This document shows, one piece after another, positions 2,400 to 38,815 of a stretch of 38,815 bases of DNA (the first letter of the stretch is position 1; every line of letters begins with the position of its first letter). The notes under the pieces are model-generated. The model saw only the letters and a program-made list of their open reading frames with translations. It was not told the origin of the DNA and ran no database searches. Origin of the DNA: a virus; UHGV virus genome UHGV-0040013; one strand, written 5' to 3'. The position numbers and the translations under genes are program-made.

Positions 2400-2624
2400 C
2401 GGATAGCGGCTTTCCTTCTTGTTTCGACAAATTTCAGACAAATCTTGTTTCAAAAAACGACTTCCTTTCAAAAAAAGCACTTATATGGGAACAAAAAAGG
2501 AACTTACGGTTCTCGACAAATCACCTTCCCGGGGTGTAATCTGTACTTGCAAGCAGCTCCCACACGCTTGCAGCGGCCAAAAAGCCCCGCCGTCGATGGG
2601 ATGATCGACGACGGGGTGATCCCA

Positions 2625-3503
2625 TCACAACTGTATGCTCCATTCGCCAACAGCCTTAACTACCAAAAGTGTTGGTGTCCCAGAAATCAAGACAGTTCCG
2701 TTGTAAACCTCAGTTGTATTAACCAGCAAATCGCCACCAACGCCATACGTCCACACCGCGAAGTGATGCTCTCCAGCATTGCCGGAGATATGTGCTGTTG
2801 TCCCGTAACTTTTGATCAAGAGAACAGCGTCTCCATAACCGGAATAGTTGGTGTCCGCACTGATGCTGCCTGTATCGTAAATAGATCGCAGTTCGATTTT
2901 CCATGCTCCGCTGGCTTTTACCTCTATCGACGCTACATCGTAGCTCGGGTCTATTGTAAACCCGCTATACGCTTCTGTGGTGTTGACCAGCAACTCTCCA
3001 TATTCCCCCGCTGAATTGTATGTAGTCACTGAAAAGTGTTTCGCATCACTATTCCCTGTAATGTAAAATGCAAACGGATAATCAGGGGTAACGATGGATA
3101 GCACATCGTCTCCATAACCTTCAAGGATTCGCGGCTTTGGTATATCTACTGGAATCTGCATATCATTTTGCACGTTCTGTGACTGCTGCTGATATTCGCC
3201 CTGTATGGTCGGCGTAGTCATCGCTGTATCTGGCTCATTCGTTTTTGCGTTTAATCGTATTGCCCCAATTATACTGCCACCGATTGGAACTGCGGCAAGC
3301 ACTGCCACAACCAAAAACAACGGTATTTGATACAGTTTTCGAGCCGACACGACTTTGCAGTATTTTGCAGTCCGCACAACGCCAATCAGCGGAAGGACGA
3401 TACCGAGCAGATACACATGCCACACAAGCATGAAAAGGCCCAAAATGATTAGTATTACATACAGATACACGTTTTTCCCATTGCCATTATCTTTTGCGCT
3501 CAT
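2625..3503 (-). CDS. membrane protein with N-terminal TM helices and two tandem ~50-aa beta-rich repeats (hypothetical; lysogeny-module cargo)
   Basis: Start ATG 3503 preceded by GGAGGAG SD (longest ORF to 3545 lacks SD). Internal repeat: ...EHFSVTTYNSAGEYGELLVNTTEAYSGFTIDP... vs ...EHHFAVWTYGVGGDLLVNTTEVYNGTVLISG...; visibly lower GC than flanks. Confidence 0.6.
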   Translation of the reverse strand: MSAKDNGNGKNVYLYVILIILGLFMLVWHVYLLGIVLPLIGVVRTAKYCKVVSARKLYQIPLFLVVAVLAAVPIGGSIIGAIRLNAKTNEPDTAMTTPTIQGEYQQQSQNVQNDMQIPVDIPKPRILEGYGDDVLSIVTPDYPFAFYITGNSDAKHFSVTTYNSAGEYGELLVNTTEAYSGFTIDPSYDVASIEVKASGAWKIELRSIYDTGSISADTNYSGYGDAVLLIKSYGTTAHISGNAGEHHFAVWTYGVGGDLLVNTTEVYNGTVLISGTPTLLVVKAVGEWSIQL

Positions 3504-3661
3504 CCGTTTCTCCTCCAGTTGAAAACTATTGTGTGCAAAGTTCAAAACCTTGCGATATAATTTTTATACGACCATCAAATTATGAGGGATTGAGAAAGAA
3601 AGGAAGTGCTCAGGAATGACCGACCTGCTCCAAGAATTGATGTCGCTCACACCGGAAGGAC

Positions 3662-3994
3662 TTAGTCGTTTTGCCGGGTATATCGCTGCCTTAAAAACGC
3701 GAGATAAGAGCGAGCCTCAGCCTGAGCATCCGGCGGAAGCTCCATAAATTCTTTTGCTACTTTGTAGACCTCATCGGGTACTCCGGTGAGGTTTTCTTTT
3801 TTGTCGTCGCTGTCATCGATCAAGTAATCGACGGATACGCCAAAAAAGTCGGCAATCATTTTCCAGATTTTCATTCCTGGATCGTACTTCCCTGTCTCGT
3901 ATCCGGAGATTGCTGCCTGTGATAAATTCAGCGCCTCCGCCAGTTCTTTTTGATTCAGCCCCTTGCTCAAACGGACTTGCTTCAGACGATTCAT
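3662..3994 (-). CDS. CI-like phage repressor, XRE-family HTH
   Basis: ATG 3994 with GAGGTGAGGG SD; HTH LSKGLNQKELAEALNLSQAAISGYETGK; divergent from Cro-like gene across operator region. Confidence 0.85.
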   Translation of the reverse strand: MNRLKQVRLSKGLNQKELAEALNLSQAAISGYETGKYDPGMKIWKMIADFFGVSVDYLIDDSDDKKENLTGVPDEVYKVAKEFMELPPDAQAEARSYLAFLRQRYTRQND

Positions 3995-4029
3995 GGCCCT
4001 CACCTCGTTTATATTATATCAGCCTTTTT

Positions 4030-4060
4030 TATTTTTCCTACAAAAAATAAAGAAAATTTA
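4030..4060 (-). promoter_or_regulatory. approximate leftward (repressor) promoter region in AT-rich spacer
   Basis: On minus strand a TATAAT (complement of 4011-4016 region) about 20 nt upstream of the cI SD; -35 poorly defined. Position approximate. Confidence 0.3.
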
Positions 4061-4079
4061 TAAAATTTGATTTTTGCTA

Positions 4080-4132
4080 TTGACATATCAAGTTTCTTGA
4101 TATATAATCCAGAATATCAAGAAACCTTATAT
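4080..4132 (+). promoter_or_regulatory. Rightward early promoter TTGACA(4080-4085)-17bp-TATAAT(4103-4108) with operator O1 = perfect 19-bp palindrome ATATCAAG-TTT-CTTGATAT (4085-4103) filling the spacer, and imperfect second operator ATATCAAG-AAA-CCTTATAT (4114-4132)
   Basis: Read directly: consensus -35 and -10 with 17-bp spacer; 8-3-8 palindrome; second copy shares left half-site exactly. Confidence 0.65.
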
Positions 4133-4148
4133 TTAATCAAGACAGAAG

Positions 4149-4361
4149 GTGATTAACATTAACGGTATCAAATCCAAGCGTGTCGAAGCGGGCCTGTCGC
4201 AAAAGCAGCTCGCAGAGATCATGGGCGTCACACAGGCGGCCATTGCGAATTGGGAGACCGGCGGCGTGTATCCGCGCGCCTCGCAGCTCCCGGCGCTGGC
4301 CGAGGCGCTGAACTGCACCATCGATGATCTTTACAACGGCGGAAAGGAGGCGGGCGGATGA
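4149..4361 (+). CDS. Cro-like XRE-family HTH regulator
   Basis: HTH KRVEAGLSQKQLAEIMGVTQAAIANWETG; first in-frame start is GTG 4149 directly abutting AGAAGG, so exact start uncertain (non-canonical start possible). Confidence 0.7.
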   Translation: MININGIKSKRVEAGLSQKQLAEIMGVTQAAIANWETGGVYPRASQLPALAEALNCTIDDLYNGGKEAGG

Positions 4362-4540
4362 CGGACGCAAGATTGCGGCGCAAGGTCATGAGCCTAGAGC
4401 GGCGGCTCTCTGAGGCCGAGGAAAAAATCCGCGCATTGGGCTCGGTTGCCGAAGCTGCAATAGAACTCTCCGCAGAACCCGCGGAAGATTTTATTGATCA
4501 GTATCTGGCTGGCTACTATGATCGGAGGTCATGCGTATGA
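4358..4540 (+). CDS. hypothetical small protein (60 aa), coiled-coil-like
   Basis: ATGA overlap with cro stop; no motif. Confidence 0.5.
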   Translation: MTDARLRRKVMSLERRLSEAEEKIRALGSVAEAAIELSAEPAEDFIDQYLAGYYDRRSCV

Positions 4541-24419: not shown

Positions 24420-26356
24420 TGGCTGCCCCGAGTATCAACTCAAAAATCAAACTGGACGGCGAGCGGGAATACAAGGCTGCGCTGGCCGAGATCAAGAGCG
24501 GCCTGAACGTTCTGAAATCCGAGCTGAATCTCGCGTCCGAGCAGTTTCGGGATAACGCGGACAGCGTCGAAGCGCTGACCAAGAAAAATGACATCCTCGA
24601 CCGCACGATCCTGACGCAGAAGGAAAAAATCGAACAGATCGAAAAGGCGCTCCAGTCCTCGGCTTCCGCCTACGGCGAAGCCGATGAGCGCACCAATCGC
24701 TGGAAAACGCAGCTCAACAACGCACAGGCCGAATTGGTCAAAATGGAGCGTGCATTGAAGGACAACGAGGACGCGCTCCAAAAAGCCCAGAGAGAAGCAG
24801 ACGGCACGACGAACGCTTTTGGCAAGCTGAAAAAAGCCCTTTCCGACACCAAGGAACAGGGCGGCGGCCTCAAGAGTCTGTTTGCCAATCTCAAGGAGGA
24901 GTTCACCGGAAACGACGAGGTCATGCGCGGCCTTGGCGACGCACTGACGGATGTGGCCGGGAAATTTGGCATCCAGCTTCCGGAGGGCGCACAGAAGGCC
25001 GTGGAATCTCTCAACGGCATCCATGCAGGCGCAGCTTTGGCTGTGACCGGCCTTGGCCTTGTGGTCGCTGCGGTGGTCAAGACCGAAAAGGCGCTGATCT
25101 CCATGACGAAGGAGTCTGCCGCCTATGTTGACAACATTCTTACAATGTCGCAGACGACGGGCCAGTCCGCAGAACAGCTGCAGGAGTTTTCCTACGCAAC
25201 GGAGCTTATGGACGTCTCCATGGACACGCTGCAAGGCTCGCTGACCAAGCTGACCAACAATATGCAAAATGCCATCAACGGAACCGGGGATGCAAAATCC
25301 GCCTTTGAGCAGCTCGGCATTTCTCTGACAAACGCCGACGGCAGTATGCGCAGCGCAAACGACGTATTTTACGACACGATTGATGCGCTCGGCGAGGTGC
25401 AGAACGCGACGGAACGTGACGCGCTCTCCATGGACATCTTCGGACGGTCTGCGCAGGATCTCAACCCGCTGATCATCCAGGGCAGCGATACGCTGCGGGA
25501 CTATGCGAAGGAGGCGCATGACGTTGGTTATGTGCTCGACAATGAGACGTTGGACGCGCTGGGCGCTGTTGACGACGGATTCCAGCGGCTGCAAAAGACA
25601 CAGGAATCCGTCAAGAACCAAATGGCTGCGGAGTTCGCCCCGTATCTGACCAAGGCGCTGGAGGACATCCGAGAGCTGATCCAGAAGGTCGGCAAGGCAC
25701 TGGTCGAGTCCGGCGCGGTCGATGCTTTTGGCAGTATCCTCGAATCGTCCGTTGCGCTTCTGGAGCCGCTCGGCTCGCTGATCTCTGCGGTGCTCCCGGC
25801 CCTGACCGCGGCCCTGAAGCCGATCGCGCAGACAGTCGCTCTGATCGCAGATACGGCCAACGTTATTGTCGGCCTGTTTACGTTCAACGGCGATAAGATC
25901 AGAACTGCACTCGGCCTGAACGCCAGCTCCGGTCAGCTCAGCAACATGCAGCGTGCCAGCGGTGCCTATAACGGCTACCGCTATTCGCAATCTGCGGGCT
26001 GGATTACCGAGGGCACCTACACGGACGCGGAGCTGCGGTCGATGTACAACAGCGAGGTTTCCGCTGGGACTGCGCAAGGGACCTTTGAGGCGTGGAAAAA
26101 TGCCGGGTCGTGGCGCAGGAACGCCAGCGGCACAGACTGGTTTCCCGGTGGGCGGACGCTGCTGAGCGAGCACGGCGCAGAGACCGCGATCCTGCCGCAG
26201 GGCACGCGCATCCTGACCGCGCAGGAGACGCGCCAGACCGGCGGCGATACTTACAACATCACGATCGACGCCCACACGGTGCGGGAGTTTGAGGACATTC
26301 TCCGCATTGTGCAGGAGCGCCGCAGAGTGGTTCGAATGGGAGGTGCAACGGGATGA
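24416..26356 (+). CDS. tail tape measure protein
   Basis: 646 aa, coiled-coil/Ala-rich, position after chaperone pair; ATG 24419 (TTG 24416). Confidence 0.9.
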   Translation: MMAAPSINSKIKLDGEREYKAALAEIKSGLNVLKSELNLASEQFRDNADSVEALTKKNDILDRTILTQKEKIEQIEKALQSSASAYGEADERTNRWKTQLNNAQAELVKMERALKDNEDALQKAQREADGTTNAFGKLKKALSDTKEQGGGLKSLFANLKEEFTGNDEVMRGLGDALTDVAGKFGIQLPEGAQKAVESLNGIHAGAALAVTGLGLVVAAVVKTEKALISMTKESAAYVDNILTMSQTTGQSAEQLQEFSYATELMDVSMDTLQGSLTKLTNNMQNAINGTGDAKSAFEQLGISLTNADGSMRSANDVFYDTIDALGEVQNATERDALSMDIFGRSAQDLNPLIIQGSDTLRDYAKEAHDVGYVLDNETLDALGAVDDGFQRLQKTQESVKNQMAAEFAPYLTKALEDIRELIQKVGKALVESGAVDAFGSILESSVALLEPLGSLISAVLPALTAALKPIAQTVALIADTANVIVGLFTFNGDKIRTALGLNASSGQLSNMQRASGAYNGYRYSQSAGWITEGTYTDAELRSMYNSEVSAGTAQGTFEAWKNAGSWRRNASGTDWFPGGRTLLSEHGAETAILPQGTRILTAQETRQTGGDTYNITIDAHTVREFEDILRIVQERRRVVRMGGATG

Positions 26357-28332
26357 GTACAACGCTAACGCTCCAAGCGGTGCAGTCTGCGGCAACACTG
26401 TATTCTCAACCAACGACTACCTTTAACACAGAGACAGAATATTCATCTGATGCGCTTAATAACAGAGCATTTTACAAAATGTATGTCTCATTTCAGCCAA
26501 TTCCTGCCGCATATCAATTTCAGAAGGTTGAAACAATCATATCGTATCTGTACTATCGCTCGCTGTATTCTCCCGCTCACACCGAGACCGTCGGAAGCGT
26601 TGATCCGATAAGCAAATCATTCGATGCTAGCACATTAAATTACCAAAATGCACCTGGTCGTATAGGCGGCAGTAGTTATTCCCTGTATTTGTATAAAACC
26701 GGATATGATTCAAAATCATGGGTTGATGCATTTAATAGTTTTTCTAAAATTTTGAGATGTGGTTTGATGACCGATGTCTCATCATGGTATGCAGTGCAAT
26801 CATCGAGAAGCGCGAACCCTCCTTACTTGGAGGTCAGTATTGGCGATGAAATTATTGGACTAACAATATCTAATGCTGCACCATCGAACGGGTCAATTGT
26901 TGCTGCAAACAGCAATGTATTTTCATGGAAAGAAGCCGCAAGCGGAACCTGCTATGCGGAGATTTCTCGCACGTCTGCAAAATTCCGCTGGCGCAAATCT
27001 GCATCCGACACAGTCAAGGAGATCGCCGTGCCCGGCACGGCTACCTCCATCACCATCCAGGCAAATACTTTTTCCGGAGACAGCATCCAGTGGCAGATCA
27101 GCGTGGTCGCGAACAGCGGCGTCACCACGACCTCCGATTGGATGACGCTCTCGCTGACCGACGTGGAATCCACAGCCGTTGCGGTTGCTCCTGACCGGGC
27201 AGTCCTTGACGGATCGTCCGACAACGTATTCAAATGGGAACATGTCATTTCGACCGGCACGGCCCAAACGAAGGCCGAATTGCAGCAGAGCACGGACGGC
27301 AGCACATGGACGGCGCTGGCAACCGTCACCGGTGCAGCCAACACATGGACAGCTCCTGCCGGGACGTTTACCTCCGGCACAAAATACTGGCGCGTGCGGA
27401 CGTACAATTCCAAGGGTGCTGCGGGCGCATGGAGCGCTGCCACACAGTTTATTGTGCTGGCCGCCCCTGCAACACCGCCCGTGTCTATCGTGTCCACAGA
27501 GCCGCGCCCGGAGATCCGCTGGCAGTCGGATGAACAGCAAGCCTACCAAGTCGAGATTGACGGCGTCTATGCCTCCGGTACGCGCTTCGGAACCAGGAAG
27601 ACGTGGAAGGCGCCGTTCTATCTGGCTGACGGCAACTACACCGTTCGCGTCCGTGTGCAGAACGAATACGGCTTCTGGTCGCCGTGGGGCACGGCGGCGC
27701 TCCCGGTCACGAACGTACCGGGCGGTGCGATCACGCTGACCGCCGAGGGCGGCATCGAGGCGGCACTCAGCTGGACGCCGGGCAGCTTTGACTACTATCT
27801 GGTCTACCGGGACGGCGTGGCCATTGCAAAGGTCACGGAACCGAGCTACACCGATGCAGCCAGCATTGGTGGTGTGCGCTATCAGGTGCGCGGCTGCTAT
27901 GACAACAGCGACAATTACAGTCTGTCCGAAGCCGTGGAGGTCACGGCCCGCACAGACAAAGTCCGACTCTACGACATGGAGCGCGGCGAGTGGCTGCATT
28001 TCCTCTATGATTCTTCGGCACACCGCAGCACGGGTCTGAGCCTGTCCCAGGACATCCAATATATCCAGCTCTCCGGGCACACCTACCCGGTCGCCGAGCG
28101 GAGCGAATTTAAGTCCCGCGCGCTGCGGATCACCTGCGTCTGCGCAGACGATGCGGAGCGGCAGGCTCTGCGGGCGCTGCTCGGCCACCTGACCTGCTGC
28201 AAGACGCCGGAGGGCAACATGACCATTGGCTACCCGTCCAGCATCTCGGAAAGCTCCGATGATTTCTTCAGCACCTATTCTTTCACCATCGAGCAGATCG
28301 ACCGAAAGGAGGAAATCGACCTTGATTCGTGA
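26353..28332 (+). CDS. distal tail protein (Dit)-like with AT-rich N-terminal domain and fibronectin-III-like repeats
   Basis: 659 aa after TMP; repeated FN3-like units (...GTKYWRVRTYNSKGAAGAWS..., ...YQVEIDGVYASG..., ...YLVYRDGVAIAKV...) and C-terminal tail-component-like region; N-terminal about 170 codons visibly lower GC. Confidence 0.65.
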   Translation: MSTTLTLQAVQSAATLYSQPTTTFNTETEYSSDALNNRAFYKMYVSFQPIPAAYQFQKVETIISYLYYRSLYSPAHTETVGSVDPISKSFDASTLNYQNAPGRIGGSSYSLYLYKTGYDSKSWVDAFNSFSKILRCGLMTDVSSWYAVQSSRSANPPYLEVSIGDEIIGLTISNAAPSNGSIVAANSNVFSWKEAASGTCYAEISRTSAKFRWRKSASDTVKEIAVPGTATSITIQANTFSGDSIQWQISVVANSGVTTTSDWMTLSLTDVESTAVAVAPDRAVLDGSSDNVFKWEHVISTGTAQTKAELQQSTDGSTWTALATVTGAANTWTAPAGTFTSGTKYWRVRTYNSKGAAGAWSAATQFIVLAAPATPPVSIVSTEPRPEIRWQSDEQQAYQVEIDGVYASGTRFGTRKTWKAPFYLADGNYTVRVRVQNEYGFWSPWGTAALPVTNVPGGAITLTAEGGIEAALSWTPGSFDYYLVYRDGVAIAKVTEPSYTDAASIGGVRYQVRGCYDNSDNYSLSEAVEVTARTDKVRLYDMERGEWLHFLYDSSAHRSTGLSLSQDIQYIQLSGHTYPVAERSEFKSRALRITCVCADDAERQALRALLGHLTCCKTPEGNMTIGYPSSISESSDDFFSTYSFTIEQIDRKEEIDLDS

Positions 28333-31318: not shown

Positions 31319-31516
31319 ATGGCAGACCAGTACAATAGCGCGCACACTGGCGCAGAGATCGATCAGGCGGTGTCTGACGTCCAGAACAACAAGGTCGCAT
31401 GGGGCACGAAGGAGCTGCCCGCGGTCACTACTGCTGACAATGGGAAATTCCTGCGTGTTGTTTCCGGGGCATGGGCGGCTGTAGAGATCGCAAACGCGAA
31501 TGGAGGTAGCTTCTGA
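31319..31516 (+). CDS. hypothetical small protein (65 aa)
   Basis: Compact spacing; no motif. Confidence 0.45.
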   Translation: MADQYNSAHTGAEIDQAVSDVQNNKVAWGTKELPAVTTADNGKFLRVVSGAWAAVEIANANGGSF

Positions 31517-32658
31517 TGGCTGAGCTTTTGACAAACACAACCGACCTTACAAAGGTTGCATCAGCTATTCGGGAGAAGGGCGGCACATCTGACCCACTGG
31601 TCTACCCGGACGGATTTGTGACAGCGATTCAGGCGATTCAGACCGGGACAGAACTGCAAATCATCGTGTCTGTGACGTCTGGCGCAACTGTTACCGCGAC
31701 GAAAGGAAGCAAGGTCGTGAGTGGCACATCTGTCAACAATTCTTGTGCTCTTACTGTGCCTGAAGAAGGAGAATGGACGGTTAGTGCAACATTGGGTGGG
31801 GAAACGAGCACTAGTAATATCGTGAACGTTACATCTTCGTATGATACAACTCTGGTATTTGCATCAACCACATTGAATGATAATTCATGGGAAACCATTC
31901 GTGGCATTTCTGATGCTGGAAGAGGCGCGAACTTTTGGAGCATCGGCGACCGAAAGGCGGTCACGCTGAACGGCACAGTTGGTGCGTTGACACTTTCTAA
32001 CTTCACGACGTATGCGTTTATCATCGGCTTCAACCATAATTCCAGCCTTGAGGGTGCAAATCGAATCCATTTTCAACTTGCAAAAACGGCGATTTCCGGC
32101 GGCAAAACTATTGGACTATGTGATCCGGGCTATAACACTCAGAACTATGAAAGTGGGTTTATCATGAATCCCGGCTCATCAAATAGTGCGGGATGGAGAG
32201 ACTCACACATGCGTAATGACATTTGTGGCACAAGTCTTATGAGCTATGCAGGGACAATGATTGCTGTTATCCCAGAGGAACTTCGCGCCGCCATTAAATC
32301 AGTTACAAAGTATACAGATAATGCCAGTAACGGTAGCACTTCCTCGGAGAGCAACATCACAGCAACAAATGATTATTTTTTCCTGCTAGGCGAATTTGAA
32401 GTGCGCGGGACTATTGACACTAGTACCACTAACCAGTACGAAGCAATAAAACAAGCCCAGTATGCGTACTATACCGCTGGAAATAATCCGTCTGCCTATA
32501 GGCATGATAAAACGACTGAGTATGCGGCTTGGTGGCTTCGCTCTCGAGATGGAAATTCGTTTCGCGCTGTTATTAACATGAATCAGGCAAGTTATGTGAC
32601 TTATAGTAGTCTATACCATGCAACCGATCTCGCCTTAGTAGTGGGCTTTTGCGTATGA
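31516..32658 (+). CDS. putative receptor-binding protein / tail fibre (low-GC cassette)
   Basis: 380 aa, Ser/Thr/Asn-rich, clearly lower GC than flanking tail genes; position at distal end of tail module. Confidence 0.6.
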   Translation: MAELLTNTTDLTKVASAIREKGGTSDPLVYPDGFVTAIQAIQTGTELQIIVSVTSGATVTATKGSKVVSGTSVNNSCALTVPEEGEWTVSATLGGETSTSNIVNVTSSYDTTLVFASTTLNDNSWETIRGISDAGRGANFWSIGDRKAVTLNGTVGALTLSNFTTYAFIIGFNHNSSLEGANRIHFQLAKTAISGGKTIGLCDPGYNTQNYESGFIMNPGSSNSAGWRDSHMRNDICGTSLMSYAGTMIAVIPEELRAAIKSVTKYTDNASNGSTSSESNITATNDYFFLLGEFEVRGTIDTSTTNQYEAIKQAQYAYYTAGNNPSAYRHDKTTEYAAWWLRSRDGNSFRAVINMNQASYVTYSSLYHATDLALVVGFCV

Positions 32659-32667
32659 GGTACGGAT

Positions 32668-33036
32668 ATGGACTACATCACATACAAACGCTTCAAGGGA
32701 AAATCCATCTCTGGGGAGGTCAACATCCCGTTCGGCACAGTTTTACGAGAACGAGGTGGGTTCCTCTATCTCGGAGAAAAGCCGATCTGCTGTGTGACGA
32801 GCGAAAACGGCTGGGAGCACTTTCGGCCAGACACCGACGAGGGACAGAGGCGGCAAGCGATACTGGAAAAGCTCTATTGCTGGTACAACAAGCACGGCTG
32901 CGGCGAGGACTTTGTAGATGAGCTGTGGCCGGGACAGGAAAACGGCTACTGGAAGAACCGGTTGAGAACGGCCAGCACGGAACGGTTGAAACAGATCTAT
33001 TTTGAGAAATTCGGGGTGATACCATGTATGCAGTAA
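32668..33036 (+). CDS. hypothetical protein (122 aa)
   Basis: GAGGTACGGAT SD. Confidence 0.5.
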   Translation: MDYITYKRFKGKSISGEVNIPFGTVLRERGGFLYLGEKPICCVTSENGWEHFRPDTDEGQRRQAILEKLYCWYNKHGCGEDFVDELWPGQENGYWKNRLRTASTERLKQIYFEKFGVIPCMQ

Positions 33037-34644: not shown

Positions 34645-35305
34645 CGATACCATCCGGGCAACGAGAGTGGGCGGCAAGCGTCCGCTCTCGGCCATCCGGG
34701 CAATCGTGTTCCACTACACGGCCAATACCGGTCTGCATGCAACGGCGCTCGGGAACGCGCGGTATTTTGCAAACGGCTCCGAGGGGCGCGCTGCGTCGGC
34801 ACATTTCGTGGTAGATGAGGGCGATACCGTTTATCAGTGTGTGCCGCTGGACGTGGTTGCGTGGGCGGTTGGCGACGGCAGAAGCGGCAAATTCGGCAAG
34901 GTGTACGGCAACTACAACACCGTCAGTATCGAGATGGTGAGCCACACGGACGCTTCTGGCAAGTACTACATCCCGGAGGCGACGATGCGCAACGCCGCGC
35001 GGCTTTATCAAATGCTGCTGAAACAGCTTCCGAACGTGCAGGCCGCGATCCGGCACTATGACATTTCGATGAAGCTGTGTCCGCTGCCGCTGATTGACGA
35101 AAAGAAATGGGCGGGCTTTAAGAAACTCTTGGAGGAGGTGGACGAAGTGGTCACAAAGGCAAAGATGGTCGTTGACGGCAAGGAGATCGAGGTCGAGCGG
35201 ATTTTGAAGGACGGCACGAATTACGTCAAGGTGCGCGACCTCGCCGCCGCCCTCGGGCTCGATGTGAGCAATCAGGGCAATATCGCCGTGCTGACGCATA
35301 AGTAA
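34628..35305 (+). CDS. endolysin: N-acetylmuramoyl-L-alanine amidase (Amidase_2/PGRP) with C-terminal Cu-amine-oxidase-N-like wall-binding domain
   Basis: GGAGGCAGCA SD; ...AIVFHYTAN...HFVVDEGDTVYQCVPLDVVAWAVGDG... amidase_2 signature; C-terminal ...VDGKEIEVERILKDGTNYVKVRDLAAALGL.... Confidence 0.85.
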   Translation: MALKINDTIRATRVGGKRPLSAIRAIVFHYTANTGLHATALGNARYFANGSEGRAASAHFVVDEGDTVYQCVPLDVVAWAVGDGRSGKFGKVYGNYNTVSIEMVSHTDASGKYYIPEATMRNAARLYQMLLKQLPNVQAAIRHYDISMKLCPLPLIDEKKWAGFKKLLEEVDEVVTKAKMVVDGKEIEVERILKDGTNYVKVRDLAAALGLDVSNQGNIAVLTHK

Positions 35306-35341
35306 GCTGTCCGCCGCGCCCTTCCGGAAGGAGGGACGCCA

Positions 35342-35590
35342 TTGGCAAGCGCAAGAGTCCATATCCCAAAAGATCTATCCGGTTTGCTGCAAAGCGAGTG
35401 GGAGCGCGTCATATGCGAGGCCGGGTACAGCAGGCAGGACGCTGAGATCGTGCGCCGCTACATCGTGGGCAAGTCCCCACAGATCGACGTCGCCGTCGAG
35501 CTCTGCATGGAACGCAGCACGTTATCCAGGCGACTGCCCGGAATTTACACGAGGGCGCGGCAGACAGCTGAAAAGCTCAATATGATATGA
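35342..35590 (+). CDS. sigma-70 region-4-like HTH small regulator (putative late/accessory regulator)
   Basis: TTG 35342 after GGAGGGA; 82 aa; ...RQDAEIVRRYIVGKSPQIDVAVELCMERSTLSRRL... is a textbook region-4 HTH. Confidence 0.55.
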   Translation: MASARVHIPKDLSGLLQSEWERVICEAGYSRQDAEIVRRYIVGKSPQIDVAVELCMERSTLSRRLPGIYTRARQTAEKLNMI

Positions 35591-35729
35591 TAAAACCCCG
35601 GCGTCCAATGGACGTCGGGGGTTTTGCTTTGCGGCGTGACACGACGAGCGGTGCATCTGACAGCATAGACAGCGGGACATTTTTAGGCGCGTCACGCTCT
35701 AGCTTGTCGATATATTCGGCTACTGTCAT
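35577..35729 (-). CDS. questionable small ORF (50 aa) translationally coupled to upstream RHH gene; overlaps the bidirectional terminator
   Basis: ATG 35729 with GGAGGTGG SD and ATGA overlap to RHH stop, but hairpin lies inside it, so may be truncated/non-functional. Confidence 0.25.
   Translation of the reverse strand: MTVAEYIDKLERDAPKNVPLSMLSDAPLVVSRRKAKPPTSIGRRGFIISY
35591..35630. terminator. bidirectional Rho-independent terminator (GC-rich hairpin CCCCGGCGTCC...GGACGTCGGGGG flanked by AAAA and TTTTGCTTTG)
   Basis: Inverted repeat with A-run 5-prime and T-run 3-prime. Confidence 0.7.
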
Positions 35730-35908
35730 TTCCCCACCTCCAAATATGCGGCGATCCATCCACGGATCAGCTCGTTCGGTGTGGTGCCGCGGGACTTCGC
35801 GGCGGTCTTGAAGTTTTCCGCGATCTCCCGCTTGAGCTTGCAGGAGATCACGGACATATTTTCTGCATCCCACTTGTTGCGAGTGCGCTTTTGTGCATCA
35901 GTTGGCAT
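35726..35908 (-). CDS. ribbon-helix-helix (CopG/antitoxin-like) small DNA-binding protein
   Basis: ATG 35908 with AAAGGAGG SD (longest ORF to 35935 lacks SD); 60 aa, N-terminal beta-strand then two helices (…MSVISCKLKREIAENFKTAAKSRGTTPNELIRGWIAAYLE). Confidence 0.5.
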   Translation of the reverse strand: MPTDAQKRTRNKWDAENMSVISCKLKREIAENFKTAAKSRGTTPNELIRGWIAAYLEVGK

Positions 35909-35931
35909 TCCTTGCAGCCTCCTTTTCTGAA

Positions 35932-36714
35932 TCATAAAAAATGAATATGGATTTCTCCGTTTCTGATTTTTGTGTTGAGAAACGCGGCCTCTGGATTCGG
36001 GGCGTTTTCAATGCTTTTCTTGCATAAATAAAGTACGATCTGCAAAGCCTGTCTGTGCGCGGCAAGCTCGGCGTTTCTCCGCTCCAAAGTTGTGATCATG
36101 GCTCTGCGGATATCTGGATTATCATCCGATAGATTTTTCAGCGCTTCGTTTACCGTATGAGAGAAGCTCGAACGAACCGTTTTTTCTCCAAGATGGATTG
36201 GGATGCCGATGGTTTTGCCGGTTTCTTTTAGATACAGCAGCCGCAGCTCGTGATCGCCGCTATTTACATCATCCTCAAGATGCACAAACACACCATGGCA
36301 CGGAGAATCGATATACCGAAAGCCGTCGGCGAATTGCACATAAAAAGATCGGTACGGGATATGGTACAGCGCCTTGCTATCGATCTCAAACTCCTCATCT
36401 TCTTGTGCAAACAATCGTTCCTGCAAAGAACGGCCGACAATAAACACATCCTTGTTTTCAATCCATGGTGCAAGGGCGGCGATCTCTTGCGTTGCCTTTA
36501 TGGCGGCAGAAATGTTTTCGTATGTGCCAGGAGAATCGCCCATCACAATCGCCATTGCCGCGGACATTGGTGCATAGCACCATTGATTCCATCTCGGAAG
36601 CCCGTTCTTGCCGTTCATTTCATGGAACAGTTTCATTTTCTCCCAGGCATCAGGGTATTCTTCTGTTACTCTCTGCAACAGAGCAAGCGGTGGATATGAT
36701 GGATCAATTCGCAT
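35932..36714 (-). CDS. hypothetical protein B of accessory operon (260 aa), no recognisable domain
   Basis: Long minus-strand ORF, 11-nt overlap with upstream gene A (coupled), lower GC. Confidence 0.65.
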   Translation of the reverse strand: MRIDPSYPPLALLQRVTEEYPDAWEKMKLFHEMNGKNGLPRWNQWCYAPMSAAMAIVMGDSPGTYENISAAIKATQEIAALAPWIENKDVFIVGRSLQERLFAQEDEEFEIDSKALYHIPYRSFYVQFADGFRYIDSPCHGVFVHLEDDVNSGDHELRLLYLKETGKTIGIPIHLGEKTVRSSFSHTVNEALKNLSDDNPDIRRAMITTLERRNAELAAHRQALQIVLYLCKKSIENAPNPEAAFLNTKIRNGEIHIHFL

Positions 36715-37468
36715 TCTTGATCTCCTCCACCTTTTCCTTGTACGCTGCCAGCGCGGACTTGTAGTTTTTTATGGATGAAACATCTTCATCGGAAATACTT
36801 GTTTCCGTATTATCCAGGTAAATGCGCCAGTTTCCGGGCCTTCCATAGAATTTCCCGTTCCAGCGTCCTGCCGGGTAGCATACAGGGCGTTCCGGCTTTT
36901 CGAGCGCTGCTATTGCGCTCGCAACAGCGGCGTCGTCTTCTGCGAGGTGCTTTGCCATATCGCAGAAGAGCATATGATCAATCTGCGTGAAAGAGTTCCT
37001 GGATTCGAGTTCAGGGATAATCTCTTTCAGCGAGCGGATCGCATCGGAAACAGCAGAGGAAACGGCTTCTGAAAATTCTTTTGCAGTGGTATATTTGGGC
37101 GCCGGAAGTTCCTTGCTCCAACACGCGTTGAATCGAGTTCCCATATCCAGGATGCCGGACAATCCTGTTTCAAACGGAACATCCCAGCGATAGCCGCGAG
37201 ATTTGAGCGCATCCTTCACGGACCGGGTGTTCCCGGTAATGGAGATCACGATCTGCGCATTGAGAACATCAAGCCCAACGAGCGCCGTGATCGGGTTCTT
37301 CGGTTCTTCGGAACGCATACGCTTTGCGTAGCAGGCGGGGCATTCCGTATAGTGGTCTGCCGCCCACAGAGCCCAGCTATCAGCTTCGGCGCGAAGCCCT
37401 TTGTTGGCCGTTCTCGTAAATTCTGTTCCGCATGTTTCACATTTGCAGTAAGCTGTTGCTTTTGCCAT
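36704..37468 (-). CDS. hypothetical protein A of accessory operon (254 aa) with N-terminal C4 zinc ribbon
   Basis: MAKATAYCKCETCGTEF...TECPACYAKR; G-rich SD (GAGGGGGG) and TATAAT (complement of 37492-37497) immediately upstream. Confidence 0.65.
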   Translation of the reverse strand: MAKATAYCKCETCGTEFTRTANKGLRAEADSWALWAADHYTECPACYAKRMRSEEPKNPITALVGLDVLNAQIVISITGNTRSVKDALKSRGYRWDVPFETGLSGILDMGTRFNACWSKELPAPKYTTAKEFSEAVSSAVSDAIRSLKEIIPELESRNSFTQIDHMLFCDMAKHLAEDDAAVASAIAALEKPERPVCYPAGRWNGKFYGRPGNWRIYLDNTETSISDEDVSSIKNYKSALAAYKEKVEEIKNAN

Positions 37469-37491
37469 GATATTTGCCCCCCCTCTTTTTT

Positions 37492-37525
37492 ATTATACTG
37501 CTCCAATGCGGTTGCACCGGAGCAG
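37492..37525 (-). promoter_or_regulatory. promoter/operator for gene A: -10 TATAAT plus 7-bp inverted repeat CTGCTCC(37498-37504)/GGAGCAG(37519-37525) over the -35 region
   Basis: Read from sequence; -35 element weak, inverted repeat may be an operator (or a plus-strand terminator-like hairpin followed by ATTTTGTT). Confidence 0.35.
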
Positions 37526-37559
37526 ATTTTGTTGGAATGGAATGTGGTGGATCTCAAAC

Positions 37560-37775
37560 TCAGATCTTCTCGCCGCAGTATACGCGATACTGGATCTCTA
37601 CGGGAATATTGTGCTCAGTCCGCCCGCAATACCAACGGGAGAGGATTTCGCCGCTATCATCGTAGCTGGATTTTTTGGCCAGCTTAAGAAGCCGGCTTGC
37701 AGAGTTCGAGCGGTGGGAGAAAAACAACTGGCCGTTCTCGTCATATGCCTTAAAGAAGTATTTATACTGTTTCAT
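37560..37775 (-). CDS. hypothetical small basic protein (71 aa), first gene of accessory operon
   Basis: ATG 37775 with AGGAGGAA SD; Tyr/Lys-rich. Confidence 0.55.
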   Translation of the reverse strand: MKQYKYFFKAYDENGQLFFSHRSNSASRLLKLAKKSSYDDSGEILSRWYCGRTEHNIPVEIQYRVYCGEKI

Positions 37776-37838
37776 TTTGTGTTCCTCCTGCATTCATTTT
37801 TGATCTCCGAATCTCGCCTTGTTTTATCTTATGGCTAT

Positions 37839-37867
37839 ATTATATACTGTAATACCGTATATGTCAA
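37839..37867 (-). promoter_or_regulatory. consensus sigma70 promoter on minus strand: TTGACA (comp. 37862-37867) - 17 bp - TATAAT (comp. 37839-37844)
   Basis: Perfect hexamers and spacing, about 60 nt upstream of the 37775 start, in AT-rich intergenic region. Confidence 0.55.
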
Positions 37868-38006
37868 GGGGTTTTGCAAAAAAATCAAAATTATTTTACA
37901 CGCAACTTCACACTCCCTCACACTCACGCCCCCCTTGAAAAGCTGATCTCCGGTACAATGAGCATAGGAGCTGGCCAGTTCACTACATTTTTTGGAGGGA
38001 AACTCT

Positions 38007-38576
38007 ATGGAATACGCAAGCAACGGCAAGGCAAATGCGGCGCTGACCACTGGTATCATCGGCACGGCGGGTGTCGGTCTTGGACTGCTGGGCAATCTGC
38101 TCGGCGGCGGCTGGGGTGTAAATCCGGCTGCGGCTGTAGCGGCGGGCACGTGCAGCGAGAATATGCCGGTCACGCGCTATGAGCTTGATCGTGAGCAGCA
38201 GCTCGCGCAGAAGGACAGCGAGATCGCGATGCTCAAGGCCAACACCTACAACGATCAGAAGTCGCTGGAGATGTACGCCTACCTCGACGGACAGCTCAAG
38301 GACATCCGCAAGTCGATCTGCGATCAGGCCGTACACAACCAGCGCACCGAGGACAGCTTCGTCCTTGCCCGGCAGGACATCGCGTCCGTAAAGGACGAGC
38401 TGCACCGCGAAATCGAGATGGAGGCCGAGCGGCGCTGCTGCGGCGACAACTCGATTGTCACCTACGCGAACGCGACCTTTTACCCCAAGCAGGTTGCCGA
38501 CGTCACCACCGGCACCGCAACCACGGCGCAGACGCTCTACAATCCACTCCCGAAGTGCGGCTGCTGCAACAAGTAA
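38007..38576 (+). CDS. hypothetical protein with Gly-rich hydrophobic N-terminal segment, central coiled coil and C-terminal Cys pairs (CC...CGCC)
   Basis: GGAGGG SD, ATG 38007; GIIGTAGVGLGLLGNLLGGGWG glycine-zipper-like; ends PKCGCCNK. Confidence 0.55.
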   Translation: MEYASNGKANAALTTGIIGTAGVGLGLLGNLLGGGWGVNPAAAVAAGTCSENMPVTRYELDREQQLAQKDSEIAMLKANTYNDQKSLEMYAYLDGQLKDIRKSICDQAVHNQRTEDSFVLARQDIASVKDELHREIEMEAERRCCGDNSIVTYANATFYPKQVADVTTGTATTAQTLYNPLPKCGCCNK

Positions 38577-38627: not shown

Positions 38628-38815
38628 TGGTGACAATAGATCAGGCCATGCGCGGCTTGGCGCAGTATGCCGACAATGAGATCATCCCGCACCTGCCAAC
38701 CGGCAAGGGAATTGGAGCCGGGATCGCGCTGGCGCTCATCATGGACGGCGGGAAAAGCCGTATCCTCGCGCTGAAGGATCACCCAGCGGTGCAGATGATG
38801 GGCATTATGGATGAG
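38628..38815 (+). CDS. hypothetical protein, 5-prime partial (continues beyond window), likely membrane-associated
   Basis: AATGGAGGTAAACC SD, ATG 38628; GKGIGAGIALALIMDGG hydrophobic/Gly segment. Confidence 0.45.

Follow-up and report, generated by a model that had tools for sequence, protein, structure and literature searches.

To our knowledge, AcrVA2 is the only bacterial protein described so far that is reported to destroy a specific mRNA upon recognising its nascent polypeptide. This anti-CRISPR of a Moraxella bovoculi prophage (structures 7CI1 and 7CI2; family PF26125) recognises the nascent N-terminal peptide of Cas12a and thereby causes the Cas12a mRNA to be lost (Marino et al., bioRxiv 10.1101/2022.11.29.518452). 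Residues H286, R288 and H291 of AcrVA2 are needed for mRNA down-regulation, and mutants in these residues still bind Cas12a; D89 is also needed for down-regulation, while W79 contributes to stability or to interaction with the target (Marino et al., bioRxiv 10.1101/2022.11.29.518452). Homologous to AcrVA2 is FinQ, a fertility inhibitor of IncI/F-like plasmids, which reduces the mRNA of F transfer genes (Marino et al., bioRxiv 10.1101/2022.11.29.518452). A different kind of described system is the phage-borne acr-aca operon, in the acr-rhh form of which the ribbon-helix-helix (RHH) regulator Aca14 (WP_005725436.1) has been shown experimentally to bind an inverted repeat overlapping the -10 element (PMC13551039). 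Here we compare with these systems a minus-strand gene cassette (35577-37880) in the virus genome UHGV-0040013, the whole 38,815-nucleotide stretch of which is referred to as the window. From its promoter onwards the cassette carries a small gene, gene A, gene B, an RHH gene and a short open reading frame (ORF). The original prediction, made from the letters of the window, took it for a novel accessory or defence system. Our results place gene B in the AcrVA2/FinQ family and show that the cassette is a mosaic mobile unit, the layout of which suggests an acr-aca-like operon.

Gene B (35932..36714, minus strand; 260 aa) is a member of the AcrVA2/FinQ family (PF26125) at the structural and profile level. 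In a word-indexed protein search its homologues fall into 26 clusters, all of which have a precomputed match to PF26125, a family named 'AcrVA2-like' in the context tables. For the protein P0009, which has the same length as B and is 98% identical to it, the precomputed match on record is PF26125.1. A profile built from the B family matches the AcrVA2 structure 7CI1 (7ci1_A) at E=1.1e-15; this score comes mostly from the C-terminal domain of the long members, and the N-terminal stretch that B possesses aligns weakly (i-E 0.55). The AlphaFold (AF2) model of B (pLDDT 89.5, pTM 0.89) has only three Foldseek matches in the PDB below E=1e-3, namely 7ci2_A, 7ci1_A and 7ci1_B. These AcrVA2 matches have E values of 3e-7 to 1.7e-6, a probability of 1.00 and TM scores of 0.50-0.55, and the next match is at E=0.37. 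AcrVA2 and B thus share their N-terminal and middle fold as well as a family profile, although their sequences are only about 10-12% identical. W84 of B aligns with W79 of AcrVA2 and is invariant in 27 sequences. In a single-sequence phmmer search of the PDB neither A nor B had a match, and AcrVA2 was reached by the family profile only. Searches of Pfam, NCBIfam and PADLOC returned no significant match for A, B or the small gene, and in PHROGs B matched only phrog_6160, a family of unknown function. That these proteins belong to no recognisable family, as the original prediction had it, is wrong for B. The Foldseek comparison of predicted models that it proposed led from B to AcrVA2 only and from A to no convincing relative.

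The chief difference between B and AcrVA2 is at the C-terminal end. Most B relatives are about 350 aa long, and the motif RPHxRRGHWHxFWxG marks their last domain. B is a rare short form: in an alignment, it and four other clusters end at 256-260 aa, without this C-terminal HxRRGHWH domain of about 90 residues, and a hidden Markov model of the domain found no matching ORF anywhere in the window. AcrVA2 has both the C-terminal domain with H286, R288 and H291 and the residue D89; B lacks the domain and has G94 at the D89 position, which is S or N in the other short forms and D in the long forms. Because the HxR domain and the D89 equivalent are missing, B should be classed with the family as a short variant and not as an AcrVA2 orthologue. 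The short form occurs in two lineages that are 59% identical, and both keep all 22 family-invariant residues. In a locus of the second lineage, L183, the 196-aa and 75-aa genes on either side of the short form are those that enclose a long form in L010, so that it arose there through loss of the C-terminal domain in an otherwise conserved neighbourhood. The ratio of non-synonymous to synonymous polymorphism (pN/pS), computed against 9-12 distinct alleles from close relatives, is 0.28 for the small gene, for A and for B, and 0.19 for the RHH gene. These low values indicate that all four are real, constrained genes under purifying selection. Together with the 22 residues kept in both lineages and the flanks shared by L183 and L010, the value for B argues that the short form is maintained and not decaying. 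A selected clade that keeps the recognition domains but has dispensed with the HxR domain essential in AcrVA2 amounts to a natural separation-of-function variant, and it can reveal what an AcrVA2-type recognition module does on its own; L183 and L010 offer a short and a long form in one and the same gene neighbourhood.

The six-frame ORF list and the minus-strand sequence bear out the lower-GC cluster at 35577-37880 as it was originally described, with a 71-aa basic protein, a 254-aa zinc-ribbon protein A and a 260-aa protein B. The promoter is a sigma-70 consensus, TTGACA-17-TATAAT (37839..37867, minus strand), which scores 12/12 in a consensus scan and is the sole 12/12 match in a 3-kb scan. 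It is unchanged in eight aligned relatives, and homology to the relatives starts just 5' of its -35 hexamer. A candidate operator, the palindrome ATATACTGTA-A-TACCGTATAT (37842..37862; an inverted repeat with 10-nt arms and 90% complementarity), fills the promoter spacer and overlaps the -10 hexamer. The pattern TATACNGTANTACNGTATA, comprising the spacer and the -10 hexamer, occurs once in the window against 0.02 occurrences expected by chance. At the other end of the operon, in the position of an aca gene, lies the RHH (CopG/Arc-type) gene (35726..35935, minus strand). Its product is 69 aa long if it starts at the ATG overlapping the stop codon of B, or 60 aa if it starts at the ATG at 35908, which is preceded by a Shine-Dalgarno sequence. 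The prediction of a DNA-binding RHH protein is upheld by profile matches, to phrog_7325 (CopG-like repressor) at 1.2e-5 and weakly to Pfam RHH_10 (0.014).

Between these two ends, the small gene is the first of the operon (37560..37775, minus strand). Its ORF spans 37560-37793, and the 71 aa are counted from the second ATG at 37775, which has the Shine-Dalgarno sequence AGGAGG 8 nt upstream. It is an orphan with five homologous clusters only, every one of them at least 86% identical. A spacer of 92 nt separates it from gene A (36704..37468, minus strand), which B in turn overlaps by 11 nt. This spacer contains a conserved hairpin with a 12-bp stem, followed by TATAAT (37498..37525, minus strand), which is nearly invariant across relatives. 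For the 97-nt intergenic stretch 37466-37562 the folding energy is -27.4 kcal/mol (z = -2.78), and the main helix of this fold is the 12-bp stem. A TATAAT box does stand before A, as originally noted, but the promoter scan found no -35 partner for it, and what had been read as a 7-bp operator-like repeat is this hairpin. A scan of 35200-38200 against Rfam found no RNA family. The start codon of the last ORF (35577..35729, minus strand; 50 aa) overlaps the stop codon of the RHH gene (ATGA), in line with the coupling originally noted, but this ORF is not an independent tiny gene. It is the stump of a 124-aa gene that L064 carries intact; only about the first 35 aa are homologous, homology to L064 stops at 35674, and the remnant ORF runs on through the hairpin of a terminator. 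This intrinsic terminator (35592..35625; hairpin at 35596-35620) has an 11-bp stem with nine GC pairs. The A and T runs flanking the GC-rich hairpin should enable it to act both ways, as predicted, and it is common to the cassette and the convergent plus-strand gene at 35342-35590. The GC content of the cassette is 0.485-0.51, against roughly 0.57-0.62 for most of the backbone, in agreement with the AT-richness pointed out earlier. The window has further low-GC islands (0.45-0.52), at 2500-4500, 26000-27500 and 31500-33000; the first of these is the integrase-proximal/cI region, the 306-aa and 161-aa ORFs of which have no Pfam match.

The cassette is a mosaic mobile unit and not part of the phage core. 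A block of 2.1 kb (35741-37881) is shared by 15 phage contigs at about 96% identity, with flanks that are 68-86% identical or unalignable, which agrees with a discrete accessory cassette under its own promoter. The comparison of relatives that the original prediction had suggested shows a variable island, with rearranged contexts in L055 and in L161-166, and none of the findings it had named as speaking against it was made. In L055 the small gene, A and B adjoin terminase genes, and both the RHH gene and the promoter differ: the TATACNGTANTACNGTATA palindrome is absent, and another RHH gene goes with another inverted repeat in the promoter spacer. The TATACNGTANTACNGTATA palindrome is found in exactly the 14 loci that encode the RHH homologue, in L062 twice. 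The second copy in L062 comes with a second promoter on a 0.85-kb insertion between B and the RHH gene (L062 6540-7400), which also carries two extra small genes of 108 and 125 aa with no family. This insertion shows that the cassette can grow by accretion. In L161-L166 (e.g. L161 6637-8817) the small gene, 86% identical, leads another set of genes, encoding a 121-aa protein, a J-domain protein with a DUF5710-like C-terminus, a Cys-rich 62-aa protein and a 150-aa protein. Here the promoter spacer holds the palindrome ACGTTGCGCAACGT, which recurs upstream in one full and one partial copy; next to the cassette is a divergent RHH gene of 59 aa. The presence of the operator in every locus with the RHH homologue, and of other palindromes where the RHH protein differs (L055, L161), supports an acr-aca-like architecture. 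The J-domain and 150-aa genes also accompany A and an AcrVA2-like gene in L003, which is indicative of a shuffled gene pool, and the cargo neighbours in related cassettes are all small proteins without a family. As an opposite-strand unit from promoter to terminator, of lower GC, located between lysis genes and integrase and exchanged among related phages, the cassette also resembles phage morons or lysogenic-conversion cassettes; 'moron', however, is a label for architecture only and is silent on function.

Full-length members of the family are found in a further setting. In L013-L017 (e.g. L013 5088-5996, 6001-7059) the AcrVA2-like protein P0022 (352 aa) is encoded 4 nt after a 302-aa SIR2_2 protein, which matches the PADLOC model of the ThsA SIR2 protein at E=1.5e-12. 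The two may form a two-gene SIR2 and AcrVA2-like module.

Taken together, these results lead us to favour, with moderate confidence, an RHH-autoregulated operon of a temperate Oscillospiraceae phage that serves in counter-defence or in conflict between elements and is acr-aca-like in its organization. The conflict may run in either direction, as anti-defence or as exclusion of rivals. The consensus promoter would fire strongly on entry or in the lysogen, giving a burst of expression, and the terminal RHH protein would bind the palindrome over the spacer and the -10 hexamer and throttle the operon. The cargo would be three proteins, the 71-aa orphan, A and B. Through its retained AcrVA2-type domains, B may recognise a specific polypeptide, belonging either to a host immunity protein or to a rival element, and it would neutralise this target through binding alone, with no mRNA decay. 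We propose a binding-only mode because the HxRRGHWH domain and the D89 equivalent have been lost and the W79 equivalent has been kept. A, and likewise the 71-aa protein, would be separately acting cargo, A being drawn from the same island gene pool. The comparison with acr-rhh operons agrees with such an operon in the strong promoter with an inverted repeat overlapping its core, the variable small cargo, the terminal DNA-binding autoregulator and the location on a phage. The likeness to Aca14 is one of layout, the cassette RHH protein having matched generic CopG/RHH families only, and repression by it is a prediction. No cargo of the cassette is a validated Acr, which sets it apart from those operons; B is AcrVA2-family cargo without the domain essential in AcrVA2. 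AcrVA2 and B are alike in coming from an accessory operon of a temperate phage. The AcrVA2/FinQ family and the acr-rhh layout were already known; the short AcrVA2-family variant within such a cassette is new here.

Several points weigh against this explanation. RHH proteins are also common as antitoxins and as generic phage regulators. In AcrVA2 the binding of Cas12a is by itself not inhibitory (Marino et al., bioRxiv 10.1101/2022.11.29.518452), which makes a binding-only mechanism uncertain for this family. The homologue FinQ targets a rival plasmid rather than host immunity. The position of an AcrVA2-like gene beside a ThsA-like SIR2 gene suggests that the fold is also used on the side of defence.

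Some of these points could be taken to mean that the cassette is exclusion or defence cargo, expressed in the lysogen, in which B, with or without A, recognises and blocks proteins of incoming phages or plasmids as FinQ acts against F. We regard this as possible but doubtful. FinQ belongs to the family of B and is likewise carried by a mobile element, being encoded on IncI plasmids from which it inhibits F-plasmid transfer and lowers the mRNA of F transfer genes, and it is thus a precedent both for exclusion and for action of the family against rivals besides CRISPR. Unlike B, however, FinQ is plasmid-borne in Enterobacteria and keeps the HxR motif (Marino et al., bioRxiv 10.1101/2022.11.29.518452); the domain for mRNA down-regulation, conserved in FinQ too, is absent from B. 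The promoter of consensus strength and the opposite-strand moron position between lysis genes and integrase would suit expression in a lysogen, and full-length family members are tightly coupled to the ThsA-like SIR2 gene in L013-17. In the cassette itself no gene matches a PADLOC model: a search of PADLOC-DB v2 gave no match at E<=0.1 for the five cassette ORFs and the neighbours W_82 and W_194, which was the outcome of the check for known defence genes that the original prediction had called for. The terminal autoregulator with a promoter palindrome is the layout described for anti-defence operons, and the shuffled pool of a J-domain protein and small orphans includes no recognisable effector of nuclease or NADase type. 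The lack of a PADLOC match, the acr-aca-like layout and the membership of B in a known anti-CRISPR and fertility-inhibition family also tell against the novel defence system that was originally proposed.

Gene A encodes a zinc-ribbon protein and belongs to a phage family that is large but uncharacterised. A first search found eight relatives; when a profile of 7 sequences was run exhaustively with HMMER, 1112 representative clusters matched at E<=1e-3 and 486 at E<=1e-10, most of them full-length (230-270 aa). The cysteines of A follow the pattern CxC-x2-C...CxxC (C8/C10/C13/C43/C46). An alignment of 61 members resolves four modules. The first is an N-terminal 4-Cys zinc ribbon in which C10, C13, C43 and C46 are invariant. 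The second, a middle alpha/beta domain with the motif G(D/N)TxxxK(D/E)xLKxxGyxW (GxTxxxKDxLKxxGyRW in the A of the window), is also found at the C-terminal end of the J-domain protein in related cassettes. A variable coiled-coil linker forms the third module and a small C-terminal RWNGKxYG beta domain the fourth. For the AF2 model of A (pLDDT 92.2) no convincing structural relative was found, and its matches in BFVD are only unannotated zinc-ribbon proteins of gut phages and one DUF5710 protein. Pfam scans of all 61 members gave weak zinc-ribbon, DUF5710 and Pepsin-I3 matches only, and in PHROGs A has a marginal match to an HNH-labelled family (E=9.5e-4), with no nuclease motif. Near-identical protein clusters are large, with 470 member sequences for A and 383 for B. 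The A family and the RHH-controlled pool of shuffled small genes, both from abundant phages of human-gut Oscillospiraceae, are candidates for anti-defence screening.

There are four independent arrangements in which an AcrVA2-like gene has, no more than 5 kb away, a gene of the A family or one with the A-type zinc-ribbon module. In the type of the window, seen in 16 IMG/VR contigs and the metagenome-assembled genome (MAG) contig L018, A and the short B overlap by 11 nt. In L003 and its relatives A is followed by a 213-aa helix-turn-helix protein and then by a full-length AcrVA2-like gene, and the proteins of this type are 34% (A) and 24% (B) identical to those of the window. In L126/128/129 (the contigs of L220-222) the AcrVA2-like gene is on the opposite strand from the gene for the zinc-ribbon protein, and in L136 it is 1.3 kb downstream of such a gene. 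The AcrVA2-like partner is absent from about a dozen other full-length A lineages and from most loci with the zinc-ribbon module only. Conversely, the A gene is absent at 34 other AcrVA2-like genome loci (L019-L052) and at about 45 in viral contigs, and the second short-form lineage (L007-9, L183) has no A gene nearby. Since most loci of either gene are without the other, we conclude that A and B come from one island gene pool without forming an obligate pair. In relatives, the genes located between or after A (213 aa, 207 aa) were also compared with AcrVA2 and A domains; they are not diverged versions of either. In L185-L219, IMG/VR contigs mostly of 77-150 kb with several shorter ones, full-length AcrVA2-like genes of large gut phages lie no further than 1-3 kb from the contig ends, and in several of these loci the gene directly upstream encodes 316 aa, partly resembling the N-terminal half of the 213-aa protein of L003.

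This distribution bears on the idea of a two-component silencer, in which the coupled zinc-ribbon protein A would supply in trans the effector or ribosome-docking function that B has lost with its HxR domain. The 11-nt overlap of A and B and the recurrence of the two gene types in four independent arrangements agree with the idea, which we nevertheless consider unlikely. Against it, the AcrVA2-like partner exceeds the short form in length in three arrangements out of four and has a clear C-terminal domain in two of those three, the other short lineage does without a nearby A, and most loci of both families hold one gene without the other. The C-terminal 'RPxxxxGRWNGKxYG' of A was tried as the missing AcrVA2 'RPHxRRGHWHxxWxG' domain, and in the profile-profile comparison (hhalign, probability 0.6%) the two are unrelated. 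A more specific version, which seems to us slightly more improbable still, makes A and B a new translation-coupled silencer, B recognising the nascent peptide and A replacing the HxR domain and delivering the complex to the translating ribosome. The middle domain of A weakly resembles the SUI1/eIF1/YciH ribosome-binding fold. If this were true, the A family and its more than 1,100 clusters would make up a new, ribosome-directed class among the conflict proteins of phages.

It is very improbable that B is a non-functional, truncated relic and the operon drifting cargo. The adjoining 124-aa gene is clearly truncated in this genome and B lacks residues that are essential in AcrVA2, but decay would not be expected to leave B, A and the small gene each with a pN/pS of 0.28, a confidently folded model of B, a short form in two 59%-identical lineages with every family-invariant residue in place, or near-identical clusters of 383 and 470 member sequences. 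A toxin-antitoxin or addiction module with the RHH protein as antitoxin is hardly credible. In its favour, RHH proteins often are antitoxins, there is a weak BrnA-type match (E=0.077), and the gene after the RHH gene overlaps it by ATGA. That downstream gene, however, is cut short in this genome, and even its intact form resembles no family of toxins; nor do A and B, and the RHH gene is last in its operon instead of first and co-varies with the promoter palindrome.

The phage that carries the cassette is temperate, and its genome encodes an integrase, a cI-like repressor, DnaB, ParA and an amidase endolysin. A 112-aa gene is split over the ends of the window (38630-38815 and 4-147; homologue at L018 2666-3004). 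The window is therefore a phage genome that is complete, 38,815 bp in size and circularly permuted. A search for att-like direct repeats between the window ends turned up none above 12 nt, and no tRNA gene was found. The 'prophage end' of the original prediction is accordingly right in that the cassette occupies an accessory stretch flanked by lysis genes and integrase, but wrong in implying host DNA on either side of a prophage. The MAG contig L018 (97% identity) identifies the host, the MAG of which is CAKTTB01, as an uncultured Oscillospiraceae bacterium of the human gut. Among isolated phage genomes, neither a blastn search with the cassette nor a tblastn search with A gave a match, and B gave seven weak matches, all hypothetical or unannotated.

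Two genes adjoin the cassette. Divergent from it, at 37992-38576 on the plus strand, is a gene of about 190 aa, the product of which is Gly-rich and hydrophobic at the N-terminus, is a coiled coil in the middle and carries a ...PKCGCCNK motif at the C-terminus. The gene has about 80% nucleotide identity in relatives and no match in Pfam, PHROG, NCBIfam or PADLOC. On the other side, just after the endolysin, the plus-strand gene at 35342-35590 encodes an 82-aa protein without a family match that resembles a sigma-70 region-4 or helix-turn-helix regulator (…STLSRRLPGIYTRARQ…) and is strongly variable among relatives (E 1e-7 to 1e-48).

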